64,000 bases of DNA from Elusimicrobiota bacterium (GTDB lineage: Bacteria; Elusimicrobiota; Elusimicrobia; UBA1565; JACRDR01): assembly GCA_041694815.1 (NCBI GenBank), contig JBGFSC010000006.1:24937-88936 (forward strand), given 5' to 3'. Below the pieces are notes generated by a model. It searched no databases, was not told the DNA's origin, and saw only the letters and a list, made by a program, of their open reading frames with translations. The first letter of the stretch is position 1, and every line of letters starts with the position of its first letter. This document shows, piece after piece, positions 7,019 to 63,880 of the stretch. The position numbers and the translations under genes are program-made.

Positions 7019-8294
7019 TCGTTTATTCCGCCGGGCTTGCGGACTGCTGCCAGGCGGGGTCAATTCGCCGGTGAGGGCCTTCAAGGCGGTCGGCGGCACT
7101 CCGCGCTTTATCCGCTCAGGCAAGGGAGCTCGAATTTTAGATGAGGATGGGCGTTCCTATATCGATTATTGCCTTTCCTGGGGACCTCTTATCCTAGGCC
7201 ATGCCCACCCCGCCGTCGTCGCCGCAGCGTCTCGCGCACTGAAAAGGGGATCGAGCTTCGGCGCGCCGACCGAGGCCGAATCGCGGCTGGCCGAGTTGAT
7301 CCGCTCCGCCTTGCCCTCGATGCGTATGCTGAGGCTGACGAGCTCAGGCACCGAGGCCGTCATGAGCGCCCTGCGCCTGGCCCGCGCCTTCACGAGGCGT
7401 GACTGGATCGTGAAGTTCTCGGGATGCTATCACGGTCATGTCGACAGCCTGCTGGTCTCCGCTGGCTCAGGCGCTATGACATTAGGCAGTCCGGATTCCG
7501 CGGGCGTACCCGAATCTTGGGCCCGGATGACGCTTTCTTTGTCTTACAACGATGTCGCTTCCGTCGAGAACGCGTTCGCCCAATATGGCGGGCGCATCGC
7601 CGCCGTCATCATCGAGCCGCTGGCCGCGAACATGGGAGTCGTGGCGCCGCGCGAAGGATTTCTCAAGGCCTTGCGCGAGATCACCCGGCGGCACGGGGCC
7701 TTGCTTATCTTCGACGAGGTGGTGACCGGCTTCCGTCTGGAGTTCGGCGGCGCCCAGACGCTCTGGAAGATAGAGCCCGATCTGACCTGCCTGGGAAAAA
7801 TTATTGGAGGGGGATTTCCAATCGGCGCTTACGGGGGGCGGCGCGAAATCATGGAGATGGTAGCGCCTTTGGGGCCGGTGTATCAGGCGGGGACCCTCTC
7901 CGGCAACCCCGTCGCCGTCGCCGCCGGCATCGCCTGTCTCGAGACTCTCCGCCGCCAGAAGCCGTACGCGCGCATGGCGCGTCTGGCCTCGCGGCTCGCC
8001 GAGGGGTTGCGCCGGCAGGCGTCGGGACTGGGCGTGCCCTTGACCGTCCAGCAATTCGCCTCTATGCTGACCCCTTTCTTTCACGCAGGACCGATCAGCG
8101 ATTACGCCAGCGCGAAGGCGGCCGACACCCGGGCTTACGCCCGATTCTTCCATGCCATGCTTCGCGAGGGAATATACCTGCCTCCGGCGCAATTCGAGGC
8201 CGCCTTCCTGTCAGCCGCGCATACCGAAAAGGACGTCGATCTCAGCTTGAGGGCAGCGGGTAGGGCGCTGGATTCGCTAACGCGAAGGACTTAG
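7005..8294 (+). CDS. hemL: Glutamate-1-semialdehyde 2,1-aminomutase
   Basis: PGGVNSPVRAF, SGTEAVMSALRLAR, FDEVVTGFR, LGKIIGGG (PLP Lys), YQAGTLSGNP. Confidence 0.96.
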   Translation: MEKSDRLFRRACGLLPGGVNSPVRAFKAVGGTPRFIRSGKGARILDEDGRSYIDYCLSWGPLILGHAHPAVVAAASRALKRGSSFGAPTEAESRLAELIRSALPSMRMLRLTSSGTEAVMSALRLARAFTRRDWIVKFSGCYHGHVDSLLVSAGSGAMTLGSPDSAGVPESWARMTLSLSYNDVASVENAFAQYGGRIAAVIIEPLAANMGVVAPREGFLKALREITRRHGALLIFDEVVTGFRLEFGGAQTLWKIEPDLTCLGKIIGGGFPIGAYGGRREIMEMVAPLGPVYQAGTLSGNPVAVAAGIACLETLRRQKPYARMARLASRLAEGLRRQASGLGVPLTVQQFASMLTPFFHAGPISDYASAKAADTRAYARFFHAMLREGIYLPPAQFEAAFLSAAHTEKDVDLSLRAAGRALDSLTRRT

Positions 8295-8888
8295 CGAGAC
8301 GAGCACTGGAAGGCCTTTGTAGAAAAAAACGAGGACGCCTTCCGGCAAGCCCATGGCGGCTCTCTGATCGGCGGACGCTTCCTTGACGCCAGCTACCTTG
8401 CGGATGGCCATGAGTACGCGCGACTGAGTCGCGATCCCGCTGTCGATGCCCACGAGTATCGCGGGGGGCGCGGGGATGACGCCGATGCTTACCCGCGGCC
8501 TATCTCCGTCATCGTAAACGGGGATCGGTATGCGATTCAAGGCGTCCGCGAATTCCTTCGCGGTCCGGAGCAGGTCTTCTTCTTTTGGTGCGCCTCCGCC
8601 GAACATGGTCGATAGAATTTGCTCCATCAGCTTGTTCTGATCCGAGCCGCGGCCCTGCGGAGCCGCTTGGATTTTCGGGATTTCCAGAAGCGGCAGTTTC
8701 CCATCCGCATCAGCCAGATTTGCCGGTCCTTCCTTTGTATAGCCTTCCGGCAAGGTGAGTAAGGGCAGTTTTCCCTGCTCGTCGAATTGGGCATCGCCCT
8801 GTTGCCTGGCATCCTCCGGGCTTTCGGCGAAGCAGGGAACGCCCGCTAAGAATACGGCGCTTACGGCGAGAGTGAATATGGAGTTCAT
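8277..8888 (-). CDS. Exported hypothetical protein with QFDExGKLPLL leader
   Basis: Signal-like N-terminus MNSIFTLAVSAVFLAGVPCFA; GGAGG just upstream; mature N-terminus is homologous to 10731..11342. Confidence 0.75.
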   Translation of the reverse strand: MNSIFTLAVSAVFLAGVPCFAESPEDARQQGDAQFDEQGKLPLLTLPEGYTKEGPANLADADGKLPLLEIPKIQAAPQGRGSDQNKLMEQILSTMFGGGAPKEEDLLRTAKEFADALNRIPIPVYDDGDRPRVSIGVIPAPPAILVGIDSGIATQSRVLMAIRKVAGVKEASADQRAAMGLPEGVLVFFYKGLPVLVSLSPSR

Positions 8889-8922
8889 GCCTCCAGTATG
8901 GGCCTTATTCCTCCGCGGCGCA

Positions 8923-8985
8923 TGAGTCCCAAGACCTAAATCGTCTGGGTCCTTGGGCCCCGAGAATTTAGGACCAAAAGGCCCT
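8923..8985. promoter_or_regulatory. Triple-box operator array A (divergent promoter)
   Basis: TGAGTCCCAAGACCTA 8923-8938, TGGGTCCTTGGGCCCC 8946-8961, TAGGACCAAAAGGCCCT 8969-8985 (23-bp period). -10-like TAAACT at 9007 (+) and CATACT at 8900 (-), each 38 bp from the start of the proximal box. Confidence 0.75.
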
Positions 8986-9018
8986 CGCGATTTGCTGCCG
9001 CTCCGCTAAACTAGTCAT

Positions 9019-62081: not shown

Positions 62082-63142
62082 TTATTTGGACTCTGCGCTA
62101 TTCCCATTTCAATCTCGAGCACCTGCAGCAGGGTCTGCGCCTGACGCGAGTGCTTGGAGGCGTCGCTTAATGAAGTCTTGGCCTTTTCTAGCCATTGCTC
62201 CTGATCCGATGCTTCCTTTAGAGTTTTGTTCTGTAAATTGAGCGCATCAAGCACTTTCTGGAAGCCTGCGAGATGCCTTTGCTCCTTTTGACCGCATCCA
62301 GAGCAATTTGTTTTGAGCATCGCATTGAACGCATGTGCTTCTCCGAGCGCCATATCTGCTTCATTGAGAATGAGCCGCGCGGCGACCGTAGATTCGTTTC
62401 GAGCGATGGCGGAGTCGAACATCTGCGCGCCTTTATCCAATAGGGCATGAGCTTTTCGCGCCTGCTCCACGGTACGTTGTATCATGAGGCGGCCGGTGGA
62501 AGCCGGGGAGAGGGTCGAATCCAGGGCCTCGCCGTTTTTAATTTTTTGAGCCTGATCCTTGATGACGGTGATCCTTCCCGCGGCAGCCTTGGCATAAAAG
62601 TCCGCGCGCGAGAGATCGATATCGTCATTTTGCCCATTCAACATCTCTATCTGCTTTGACGCCTCATCGATATCATTGATGGTAGAGAGCATCAAATCGG
62701 CGAATATTGCTTTTTGCGAGGGATCGCAACTGCCTTTGCTCGACTCGGATTGCTTGAGCATCTCGCGGGCCCGATCTATATTGAATCGGGCGTCTCGATT
62801 GAGTTTGTGGGAGAGATCTCGATTGGACAGCGTTCTGGCCGTGTCGACATTCTTCATGGCCTCGGTGATATTGCCGAAGGCCTGATCGAGCAATTGACAA
62901 CCATCCGTGCCTCCTGGCAACGCGACCCCGCCGCAGGCGCTGCCGAGAACGGAGAGGGCCAACGCCGCCCCGGCGAGCTTTCTGCGGAAGGCGCCGCCGT
63001 CCGACTTCTTTTTCGCTGACAGCGCCGAGACGGCTTCCGCGACCTGATCTTTCGTATCGGAACCGAAATCTTGAGCTATCGAAGCGGGGAGCGTCGATAT
63101 GCCGAGGCTTAAAGCCAGTATGGCCGCGATTAATTTCTTCAT
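62078..63142 (-). CDS. Dual-signal helical family, long form
   Basis: ...ASIA-QDFG...FRRKLAGAALALSVLGSAC...DGCQLLDQAF. Confidence 0.85.
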   Translation of the reverse strand: MKKLIAAILALSLGISTLPASIAQDFGSDTKDQVAEAVSALSAKKKSDGGAFRRKLAGAALALSVLGSACGGVALPGGTDGCQLLDQAFGNITEAMKNVDTARTLSNRDLSHKLNRDARFNIDRAREMLKQSESSKGSCDPSQKAIFADLMLSTINDIDEASKQIEMLNGQNDDIDLSRADFYAKAAAGRITVIKDQAQKIKNGEALDSTLSPASTGRLMIQRTVEQARKAHALLDKGAQMFDSAIARNESTVAARLILNEADMALGEAHAFNAMLKTNCSGCGQKEQRHLAGFQKVLDALNLQNKTLKEASDQEQWLEKAKTSLSDASKHSRQAQTLLQVLEIEMGIAQSPNK

Positions 63143-63143
63143 G

Positions 63144-63764
63144 CTACTTGGCGCCATCCTTCTGCGCCAGTTCCTTGAGAGCCGAGATCTTGGCATTGGC
63201 CTCTTCCGAGTGGGTGCGAGCGCTCCTGAGCCGGCTGGATACTTCATCCTGGCTTGACGAAGACAACGCCGTCTTCGTGGCGGCTATTTCTTGCTCGACG
63301 TCCGCGATTATTTTTCCCACCGTCCTCGAGTAAAGAGCGTATTGATTCTGGTCGCAGTATATCTCCAAGTGATACCGGCCAGGCCGCCTGTCAATCGCAA
63401 GTTTGGCGTCCTCGAGTACTATTTCGGCCCCCGCCAATGCTGCCTGCGCCGCCGCGCGCGAGCCCTCGCTCGCTTTTTGGACGCTGTCGTCAGCGCGGCG
63501 AACCGCTTCGGTCGTCTTATCGAAGGCTCGCTGCGTCCAGACGCAAGCATCGCGGTCCGGATTGCCAGCATGAATGCCACAGCCGACGGCGCTCAATGCG
63601 AGCAGCGGCACCCCGACCAGGGTCACTAGCCGCTGGCGCGCGCTCATCTTCTTTCGGGTTTGCGCCGCAGCGGCGCCAAGCTGTGCCTGGGTATTTCCTA
63701 AATCCTGCGCCGAGGCAGTGAAGGTCCCGCAGGCAAGAATAGCCGCTAAAAGCCATCCGTTCAT
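63144..63764 (-). CDS. Dual-signal helical family, short form
   Basis: ...TASA-QDLG...ARQRLVTLVGVPLLALSAVGC...DACVWTQRAF. Confidence 0.85.
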   Translation of the reverse strand: MNGWLLAAILACGTFTASAQDLGNTQAQLGAAAAQTRKKMSARQRLVTLVGVPLLALSAVGCGIHAGNPDRDACVWTQRAFDKTTEAVRRADDSVQKASEGSRAAAQAALAGAEIVLEDAKLAIDRRPGRYHLEIYCDQNQYALYSRTVGKIIADVEQEIAATKTALSSSSQDEVSSRLRSARTHSEEANAKISALKELAQKDGAK

Positions 63765-63817
63765 CTCATTTGCCCCCTTATCACCCCTTAGGATAGGGCG
63801 CCTGTTGCCCTGCGGCA

Positions 63818-63880
63818 TGAGGCCTTGGTCCTACCTATCGCTGGTCTTAATGCCTAGCGCTTCCTGGGACCAAGGACCTA
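63818..63880 (-). promoter_or_regulatory. Triple-box operator array E
   Basis: Minus strand: TAGGTCCTTGGTCCCA (63880-63865), TAGGCATTAAGACCAG (63856-63841), TAGGACCAAGGCCTCA (63833-63818); TATCCT at 63795 (38 bp). Confidence 0.8.

Follow-up and report, generated by a model that had tools for sequence, protein, structure and literature searches.

Predicted signal peptides on paralogs of ATP-dependent enzymes, and a promoter regulon for exported proteins, in an Elusimicrobiota genome

The stretch of DNA analyzed here (the window; 64,000 nucleotides, C9:24937-88936 of the assembly, where C9 denotes a contig) belongs to the genome of an Elusimicrobiota bacterium, assembled to 2.77 Mb in 54 contigs with 63% G+C. 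The bulk of it is ordinary chromosome, with genes for an AddAB-like nuclease/helicase, hemB, argS, pilT, aconitase, Ku/LigD, glycogen phosphorylase, and others. Our subject is a set of genes for enzymes that use ATP or related nucleotides, namely a Lon protease, a pyruvate kinase (PK)-like protein, an adenylate kinase (Adk), and a Clp/Hsp100-type ATPase, together with a 2-oxoglutarate (2OG) oxygenase, three orphans, and eight paralogous proteins. According to the initial annotation, all of them begin with extensions that resemble signal peptides, and most are controlled by one type of promoter. The textbook view is that the bacterial periplasm is free of ATP-driven machines, and that envelope proteases and chaperones are ATP-independent and receive energy passed from the inner membrane. 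The protein-coding features concerned, in window coordinates, are:

8277..8888, minus strand: orf8888, an orphan of 203 amino acids (aa) with a signal-peptide-like start and no Pfam family
9019..10728, plus strand: LonA paralog (LonSP) with a predicted signal peptide and without the Lon N-domain (Pfam Lon_C, 3.6e-61, plus AAA)
10731..11342, plus strand: orf10731, a paralog of orf8888 with a signal-peptide-like start and C-terminal hydrophobic helices, following Lon after a gap of 2 nt
18896..19420, plus strand: orf18896, a 174-aa orphan with a signal-peptide-like start and no Pfam family
19547..20680, plus strand: PK-like A+B barrel of 377 aa with a predicted signal peptide (Pfam PK barrel, 3.3e-40)
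49363..50022, plus strand: Adk of the short-LID type with a predicted signal peptide (Pfam ADK, 7.3e-37)
50019..54740, minus strand: two-ring Hsp100-like ATPase of 1573 aa, putatively polytopic (AAA_2, 6.8e-41, plus ClpB_D2-small)
54737..56293, minus strand: 2OG-Fe dioxygenase (Oxy; PF10014) with a predicted signal peptide (2OG-Fe_Oxy_2, 2.4e-28)
56290..61153, minus strand: five paralogs (56290-57393, 57383-58414, 58413-59471, 59472-60545, 60542-61153) in one unit with Oxy and Clp
61428..63764, minus strand: three further paralogs (61428-62081, 62078-63142, 63144-63764)

Signal peptides were called with a simple heuristic of our own (n-region, h-region, and cleavage motif), not with a trained predictor, and open reading frames (ORFs) and their starts, chosen by ribosome-binding site (RBS), were likewise called by our own crude procedure. 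Family assignments follow Pfam cut-offs and NCBIfam equivalog cut-offs, and order-wide counts refer to 61 genomes including this one. With these tools, the extensions were recovered in Lon, the PK-like protein, Adk, Oxy, orf8888, orf10731, orf18896, and the eight paralogs, but the extension of the Clp-like protein falls short of a clean signal peptide. Lon, PK, Adk, and Oxy each combine a positively charged n-region, an h-region of 15–17 residues, and a neutral or acidic next stretch, and have no later membrane helix; LonSP, for instance, starts with MKK, continues with a hydrophobic stretch of 17 residues, and reaches SYA directly before Q. The true starts do not appear to lie downstream of the extensions: in Lon, Adk, Oxy, and Clp, the stretch that leads from the hydrophobic segment to the conserved core contains no in-frame ATG, GTG, or TTG, the exception being the PK-like gene, in which a possible TTG start at codon 31 might remove the signal segment. 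Clear RBSs precede Adk, Clp, Oxy, orf8888 (GGAGG), and orf18896. In addition, the genome encodes ordinary, signal-less copies of Lon (contig C3, 800 aa), PK (C21, 478 aa), Adk (C48, 218 aa, with 31% identity to the signal-peptide Adk), and a ClpC/B-like protein (C35, 821 aa), as the annotation had required of dedicated exported copies. A predicted Sec-type export of Lon, Adk, Oxy and, less firmly, PK is thus supported at the level of sequence.

The promoter consists of three boxes of ~14 bp of the TAGGNCC type (TAGGNCC-www-GRNCC), which lie 23–24 bp apart. Five copies in the window align gap-free across 78 nt, with CATGC about 9 nt after the third box:

8917..8988, minus strand: triple box towards orf8888 (E 4e-12; plus strand E 0.73)
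18773..18845, plus strand: triple box upstream of orf18896 (E 4.3e-10)
19445..19518, plus strand: triple box upstream of the PK-like gene (E 1.4e-12)
61198..61269, minus strand: triple box heading the genes from the 60542 paralog through Oxy and Clp (E 6.1e-12)
63812..63885, minus strand: triple box heading the three-paralog unit (E 5.9e-12)

Four units are headed by these boxes: orf8888; orf18896 with PK; a seven-gene unit from 61153 down to 50019 (five paralogs, Oxy, and Clp); and the three-paralog unit. A common promoter had been proposed for all of the enzymes except Adk, which holds for the PK-like gene, Oxy, and Clp, whereas Lon only adjoins the divergent box of orf8888. Because the spacing of boxes 2 and 3 resembles that of −35 and −10 elements, we read the array as a special promoter. 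The consensus of 20 genomic copies is TAGGcC-tta-G.CCtA for box 1, TgGGcC.AAAGACt for box 2, and tTAGGcCtTt.GcC.CatGCg for box 3. As a marker, the bare 7-mer TAGGNCC was discarded, with 25 matches in the window against 24.8 expected; specificity lies in the complete 78-nt architecture alone.

A profile scan of the genome at E<=0.1 returned 33 non-overlapping matches, 32 of them intergenic according to our ORF calls, corresponding to ~25–30 promoters. At E<=0.01 the first gene encodes a signal peptide in 17 of 19 cases at the RBS-chosen start and in 19/19 at some start, compared with a background of 24% (638 of 2630 crude ORF calls; p = 3e-9). Unless stated otherwise these statistics include the five window sites used to build the model; without them the proportion is 13/14. 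Relaxing the threshold gave 23/26 at E<=0.05 and 25/30 at E<=0.1. The boxes end 27–65 nt before the start codons. The genes behind them have a median G+C content at third codon positions (GC3) of 0.71, below the 0.80 of other signal-peptide genes and the 0.81 of all remaining genes, the ATP-enzyme paralogs being near typical; the box-headed genes divide into many small paralog families, and 31 of the 51 proteins scanned from the units match no Pfam family. In box-headed units elsewhere, M48 and M28 peptidases, SNase, and GH3 proteins have signal-peptide-like starts, as do the AAA_5, VWA, and WD40 proteins of the C20 operon described below. The link between box and signal-peptide genes, noticed at first in the window, therefore extends genome-wide, and the box-headed units of the window belong to a larger regulon for proteins with predicted Sec-type signal peptides. 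Outside this genome, the box model found weak matches only (E>=0.007) in 220 kb of loci from other genomes, and a strict two-box pattern searched for across the order occurred 12 times here (control 1) and 0–8 times in other genomes (control 0–5).

A first rival reading is that the starts were mis-called or the N-termini are hydrophobic by chance, and that the box is an ordinary promoter without a link to export. The 24% of all ORFs marked by the heuristic and the TTG codon of the PK-like gene speak for such an artefact. Against it, the heuristic is positive in 0/118 canonical ClpC and 2/118 canonical ClpB (2/236 canonical Hsp100 proteins together), Lon, Adk, Oxy, and Clp offer no alternative start, Adk, Clp, and Oxy have good RBSs, the extensions are kept in orthologs while their sequence drifts, and the box association is far from chance. 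We regard the artefact as largely refuted and would be very surprised if it accounted for the pattern.

Aligned to the structure 3m6a, LonSP retains Walker A and B (GPKGTGKTS, DEVDK) and the Ser-Lys dyad (DGPSAG and the Lys of GGLKQK), and it passes the TIGR00763 “lon” equivalog model with 633 bits (cut-off 608) over model positions 249–795. The LON substrate-binding N-domain is missing: homology begins at residue 47–52, which leaves ~25 residues between signal peptide and core. In a search of 1.84 billion representatives, a signal-peptide-like start was seen in 22 of the 40 best matches and in 17 of the 109 others. A FastTree phylogeny of 128 Lon cores (unrooted, with SH-like support and no bootstrap) places LonSP in a clade with support of 99. 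Its 19 rows comprise 16 with a signal peptide and three without, at least one of the latter being N-terminally truncated, so that the signal-bearing Lons form their own clade, in favor of the initial annotation. The second Lon of one relative (G174) combines a signal peptide with a long linker.

The signal-peptide Adk, whose gene starts 1 nt after the stop codon of an upstream GAF-HD gene, exceeds the Pfam cut-off by far (PF00406, 127 bits versus 26.8) and keeps the P-loop GPPGSGKT and the motif DGFPRT, but remains below the NCBIfam adk equivalog models (158 versus 187). Orthologs with 38–61% identity occur in 28 of the 61 genomes. Nineteen of these loci were read: 14 encode a signal peptide followed by an Ala/Pro/Val-rich linker of 25–140 residues and Adk, two (genus g7) have Adk at the C-terminal end of a membrane protein with PQ-loop and PRK/uridine kinase parts, and three are truncated or unclear. 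The Adk extension is thus kept in relatives. Adk orthologs and the TLC-like carriers of relatives (introduced below) have a leader in common, a signal peptide ending in AQ[QR] and then Ala/Pro/Val repeats resembling [IV]AAPxVxVxPV, which may represent a common tether or sorting module.

Further paralogs of ATP-dependent enzymes, and two genes for putative nucleotide carriers, are encoded outside the window:

C9:20388-22460, just upstream of the window: FtsH2 (PF00004 and PF01434), with a hydrophobic segment at residues 11–27 and no second transmembrane helix (TM2)
C9:22483-23826: TLC-like carrier 1, starting 23 nt after FtsH2
C25:48698-49987: TLC-like carrier 2, with a match to PDB entry 9j3n
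C2:22715-25135: Clp_C2, an Hsp100 with an orphan N-domain behind a signal-peptide-like start and no membrane helix elsewhere
C15:3073-5367: Clp_C15, an Hsp100 with an orphan N-domain behind a signal-peptide-like start and no membrane helix elsewhere
C25:55338-58088: Clp_C25, an Hsp100 with an orphan N-domain behind a signal-peptide-like start and no membrane helix elsewhere

In the three Hsp100 proteins, both AAA+ rings with Walker A/B and the D2-small domain are present, Clp_N (PF02861) is unmatched, and each gene lies in an operon with other signal-peptide proteins. According to our heuristic, Clp_C2, Clp_C15, and FtsH2 share with Lon, PK, Adk, and Oxy a positive n-region, an h-region of 13–19 residues, and a small-residue cleavage motif; Clp_C25 is scored positive although its h-region is longer, a long uncharged stretch, and lacks a basic n-region. 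The stretch after the h-region is neutral or acidic in Lon, PK, Adk, Oxy, and the three Hsp100s and carries +1 in FtsH2, and none of these proteins has a further membrane helix. The canonical FtsH of this genome, encoded on C24, has two transmembrane helices.

The FtsH-TLC gene pair is kept in two relatives of the same family (G203 and G205), again with signal-peptide-like starts and without a second helix in FtsH. Both TLC-like genes lie above the PF03219 cut-off (40.4 and 69 bits versus 21), a family that had no match in any of 14 control genomes (0/14), and TLC-like carrier 2 aligns with the solved ADP,ATP carrier 9j3n over residues 34–409 of 429 (E 2e-11). TLC-like genes occur in 27 of the 61 genomes; 19 genomes have both Adk and TLC, nine Adk only, eight TLC only, and 25 neither. 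In some relatives the TLC-like protein itself begins with a signal peptide and an Ala/Pro/Val linker styled as in the Adk orthologs.

The PK-like protein is a divergent member of the set. It matches the PK barrel well (PF00224, 138.6 bits versus 30) and keeps the catalytic Lys/Glu/Asp, as AKIE and GGDL align with SKIE and RGDL of PykF. In the same alignment the K+ site is altered (Ser to Ala, Thr to Leu), and the protein ends after the barrel, without the C-terminal alpha/beta domain; with TIGR01064 it reaches 165 bits (cut-off 306).

The window Clp differs from the other members. A first hydrophobic segment is followed by a stretch with a charge of +5, weak helices at 136–176, two ATPase rings with intact Walker A/B, 540 orphan residues, and helices at 1374–1450; the C-terminal part of 740 aa is an orphan. 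It reaches 365 bits with TIGR03346 (cut-off 1232) and has no match to PF02861. Among 5.8 billion proteins, its only close homolog (44% identity) is P0002, a chain of 2563 aa in which a 2OG-Fe oxygenase is fused to Clp, and therefore Oxy and Clp would be functionally tied. The C-terminus of the window Clp (50019-50400, minus strand) contains two copies of a tail motif, …K[RE]EWP[EAD]FK…, and so does that of P0002. The proposal that this protein is exported like the others is not borne out, as the +5 flank and the extra helices indicate that it is probably a polytopic membrane protein.

These properties lend weight to a different topology for the whole set, in which the N-terminal segment, by itself or together with later helices, tethers the enzymes to the inner membrane, the catalytic domains stay in the ATP-containing cytoplasm, and the regulon consists of membrane quality-control machines for secreted proteins. 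Besides the window Clp, this topology is favored by P0002, with hydrophobic helices between its oxygenase and Clp parts and near its C-terminus, in positions that correspond to those of the window Clp, by the AAA_5 and VWA proteins of a box-headed operon on C20, whose hydrophobic N-termini are followed by +3/+4 flanks, by the second Lon of relative G148, which begins with several hydrophobic helices, and by the Adk of genus g7 as the C-terminal domain of a PQ-loop membrane protein. In Lon, Adk, PK, Oxy, and the three other Hsp100s, however, the charge bias is the opposite and would place the N-terminus inside and the bulk outside (in FtsH2 the flank carries +1 and the n-region +2). Moreover, the h-regions, mostly 13–19 residues with Pro/Gly and Ala-x-Ala-like ends, are short for a membrane span, none of these proteins has a second helix to return the chain, and the long Ala/Pro-rich linkers of orthologs are typical of extracytoplasmic tethers. 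We therefore treat membrane anchoring as a serious rival, and as the better reading for the window Clp, while considering it rather unlikely for the set as a whole.

The eight paralogs appear to carry tandem signals: a signal-peptide-like start ending in AQDFG, a Lys/Arg-rich stretch, and a second hydrophobic segment ending in …LGSAC, with an invariant, lipobox-like Cys, followed by a Cys-containing helical body. For several of them, translation truly begins at a Met inside the longest ORF. The AlphaFold2 model made for these paralogs is all-helical (pLDDT 76.6, with residues 1–75 below 50), and a Foldseek search of this model against the PDB retrieved nothing at E<=0.001. The orphans orf8888 and orf10731 share 43–51% identity across about 80–105 aa. 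Altogether, no Pfam family is matched by nine of the 15 window proteins scanned, namely the orphans and every paralog but one, and one further paralog has a sub-threshold match only.

Other loci under the box were noted in passing. C18:8636-9253 encodes a signal-peptide protein of 205 aa that consists of little beyond a part of Peptidase_M41 (profile positions 5–101 of 191). At C37:30445-33616, a diversity-generating retroelement (DGR) with a signal-peptide FGE-sulfatase-type variable protein, HRDC, bAvd, and a reverse transcriptase lies immediately behind a triple box. The box-headed operon on C20 (59083-66656) encodes a double AAA_5 protein of 899 aa, a VWA protein of 796 aa, and two WD40 propellers, a MoxR-vWA-beta-propeller layout. 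The box operon at C25:53876-60269 comprises a signal-peptide protein, Clp_C25, and two signal-peptide proteins with FGE-sulfatase domains. The weak triple box at the head of this operon immediately follows the gene for an extracytoplasmic function (ECF) sigma factor (C25:53876-54427), which is a candidate for regulating all box-headed units.

What was observed are the sequences with their conservation, the paralog relationships, the box regulon, and the pairing of genes. The simplest reading of the sequences is a periplasmic location of Lon, FtsH2, the three Hsp100s, Adk and, probably, the PK-like protein, which would require adenine nucleotides there. We tentatively propose an ATP-dependent machinery on the envelope side that is fed by nucleotide carriers and encoded inside and beside the box regulon, a reading to which we give a probability of roughly 45%. 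The ~25–30 triple-box promoters would drive genes for Sec-type signal-peptide proteins, and dedicated paralogs of LonA, FtsH, Hsp100 (three), Adk, and PK, encoded beside the ordinary copies and inside or beside the regulon, would be exported to the periplasmic side of the inner membrane and work there unattached or held by Ala/Pro-rich linkers. There the machines could carry out ATP-dependent proteolysis or unfolding of the co-regulated exported proteins, with TLC/NTT-type carriers supplying adenine nucleotides and the exported Adk balancing the nucleotide pool. The pairing of FtsH with TLC, the tethers, and the membrane fusions lead us to place this action at the cell's own envelope. Export, the substrate and direction of the carriers, and ATP use outside the cytoplasm are what we infer. 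ATP has been measured in the periplasm of Escherichia coli, which it can enter via porins, although no translocase is known there (PMC7432876).

A number of observations weigh against this proposal. Not all components belong to the regulon proper: on the Lon strand the match to the triple box is weak (E 0.73) and Lon merely shares the divergent region with orf8888, and the genome profile scan found no triple box upstream of Adk or of the FtsH-TLC pair. Neither of the two true ClpP genes in the genome encodes a signal peptide (0/2). Conservation is confined to Adk, Lon, and FtsH with TLC: the PK-like protein is private to this genome, since none of the 60 other genomes searched in the order contains an ortholog or anything closer than 35%, and so are the Hsp100 N-domains, as residues 1–220 of Clp_C2 gave D1-only matches and no N-domain homolog among 5.8 billion proteins, and residues 1–143 of Clp_C15 had no match in the 60 other genomes. 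The carriers are distant from characterized ones (34 and 57 bits with TIGR00769, cut-off 387), the co-occurrence of Adk and TLC is confounded by kinship of the genomes, and NTT homologs are widespread in free-living bacteria with unclear roles (PMC5381601). The window Clp, whose first hydrophobic segment runs straight into a +5 stretch and which has four additional hydrophobic helices, does not fit a clean export, nor do the multi-helix chain P0002 and the charged flanks of the C20 proteins. Finally, the home-made signal-peptide heuristic and the crude ORF and start calling count on the same side.

In family f2, a signal peptide, a nuclease/phosphatase (Exo_endo_phos) domain, and a TLC-like part are fused in one protein, which fits the import of scavenged nucleotides as well as the export of ATP and thus also tells against our proposal. 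It leads to the alternative that the proteins are exported for nucleotide scavenging: Adk, the uridine-kinase fusions, nucleases, and TLC-like importers would process nucleotides from extracellular nucleic acids, and the AAA+ paralogs would either turn over no ATP or rely on traces of external ATP. The PQ-loop-PRK-Adk fusion of relatives, the signal-peptide protein with an SNase domain under the box, and the periplasmic ATP with porin entry mentioned above are in line with this view. It accounts poorly for the conservation of all Walker A/B motifs and of the Lon and FtsH protease domains in the exported copies, and in the family of this genome the FtsH-TLC pair joins the carrier to an ATPase and not to a nuclease. 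On balance we find scavenging an unlikely explanation.

The initial annotation had favored another destination, the ATP-containing cytoplasm of a host or prey cell, where the exported proteins, once released or injected, would act as effectors. The predicted Sec-type export stands, whereas nothing specific to a host or prey cytoplasm emerged. The regulon does hold a nuclease, M48/M28 peptidases, WD40 propellers, the DGR-diversified FGE-sulfatase-type binder, and many orphans, its GC3 is lowered (median 0.71 versus 0.80–0.81), and the genome has four secretin genes, all of which would suit effectors. On the other side, TssC of the type VI secretion system is unmatched in the genome, the sole injection marker searched (types III and IV were not searched); the signal-peptide Adk is spread across an order of 2–5 Mb genomes; the partner of the signal-peptide FtsH is a carrier of the inner membrane; and the tethering linkers and membrane fusions suggest the own envelope. 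We also know of no case in which AAA+ hexamers of the Lon or FtsH type are delivered into another cell, and an effector role strikes us as distinctly improbable.

A variant with a similar destination would keep the carriers and make the signal-peptide Hsp100 operons the motors of a new delivery route. Driven by periplasmic ATP from NTT-type carriers, in a counterpart of the Plasmodium PTEX, the unfoldases would thread their co-operonic partners (DGR-type FGE-sulfatase binders, WD40 propellers, orphan lipoproteins) across the outer membrane or into another cell, and the triple-box promoter would switch the set on, possibly via the ECF sigma factor encoded beside one box. This idea is speculative and we hold it to be very doubtful.

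As an alternative to the host or prey cell, it had been considered that PK and Adk regenerate ATP for exported AAA+ machines. The part of this idea that places ATP use in the own envelope fits the new evidence better, because a TLC/NTT-like carrier accompanies the signal-peptide FtsH in relatives as well, and Adk and carrier orthologs bear Ala/Pro-rich tethers. PK and Adk themselves are not a conserved unit, since PK has no ortholog in the order and lacks the C-domain and the K+ site.

The paralogs hence suggest, without proving it, that ATP is supplied to the space outside the inner membrane. In that case the signal-peptide Lon, FtsH, Hsp100, and Adk would be clonable test cases for an ATP-supplied periplasm, conserved in several uncultured lineages and paired with a nucleotide-carrier homolog. 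Should the enzymes stay cytoplasmic, they would form a family of membrane-tethered AAA+ machines dedicated to the secretome. In either case, the triple box appears to define a clean regulon of ~60 or more genes for exported proteins, mostly orphans, in an uncultured phylum. Keyword searches of the literature found no paper that deals with bacterial Lon, Clp, FtsH, or Adk bearing a signal peptide, and the listing of sequencing runs, RNA included, yielded none that contained positions 8200–11400 of the window.

Compared with canonical LonA, FtsH, ClpB/ClpC, Adk, and PykF, the catalytic cores are conserved, and Lon even passes the equivalog cut-off; the differences lie in the replaced N-terminal modules (the Lon N-domain, Clp_N, and TM2 of FtsH are gone), the missing C-domain of PK, the signal-peptide-like starts, and the status as second copies. 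Extracytoplasmic S16 proteases that consist of Lon_C only (SepM family; NF041438) likewise have a Lon protease domain outside the cytoplasmic membrane, the location predicted here, but are devoid of the AAA+ module, whereas LonSP keeps a complete ATPase. Pseudomonas aeruginosa and mycobacteria are reported to secrete Adk and Ndk, as housekeeping enzymes without signal peptides, and our literature searches did not return these reports. They resemble the present case in that an adenylate kinase would be found outside the cell; here, however, it is a dedicated paralog with signal peptide and linker, conserved across the order.

HSP101 of Plasmodium PTEX (PDB 6e10/6e11) is, like the Hsp100s described here, a two-ring ATPase of the Hsp100/ClpB type with a signal peptide, and works outside the plasma membrane. 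It does so in a translocon with EXP2 and PTEX150, partners of a kind that was not seen here, and the similarity of the window Clp to it is at family level only (E about 3e-73), no better than to other ClpB. As regards the carriers, two genes pass PF03219, the family of the TLC/NTT transporters of Chlamydiae, Rickettsia, and plastids (9j3n, 9j3j), one of them with a near full-length match, but both proteins are very distant and stay far under the TIGR00769 cut-off.

The closest functional analogy may be offered by the mitochondrial intermembrane space, which contains the i-AAA protease Yme1/YME1L, AK2, and CLPB/Skd3 and is fed by the ADP/ATP carrier. In both cases, FtsH, Hsp100, and Adk families would occupy a topologically periplasmic compartment together with a homolog of a nucleotide exchanger in the inner membrane, the bacterial side of the comparison being known from sequence. 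The layout of FtsH2 with a single N-terminal helix is that of i-AAA, and AK2 and CLPB chains are among the PDB matches of Adk and Clp. The differences are that the present set belongs to a bacterium, uses Sec-type signal peptides, has a carrier of the TLC/NTT (MFS) type in place of a mitochondrial carrier, and includes a Lon paralog, whereas mitochondrial Lon is found in the matrix. If the proposed machinery exists, a bacterium would thus have arrived independently at an arrangement that parallels this mitochondrial compartment.

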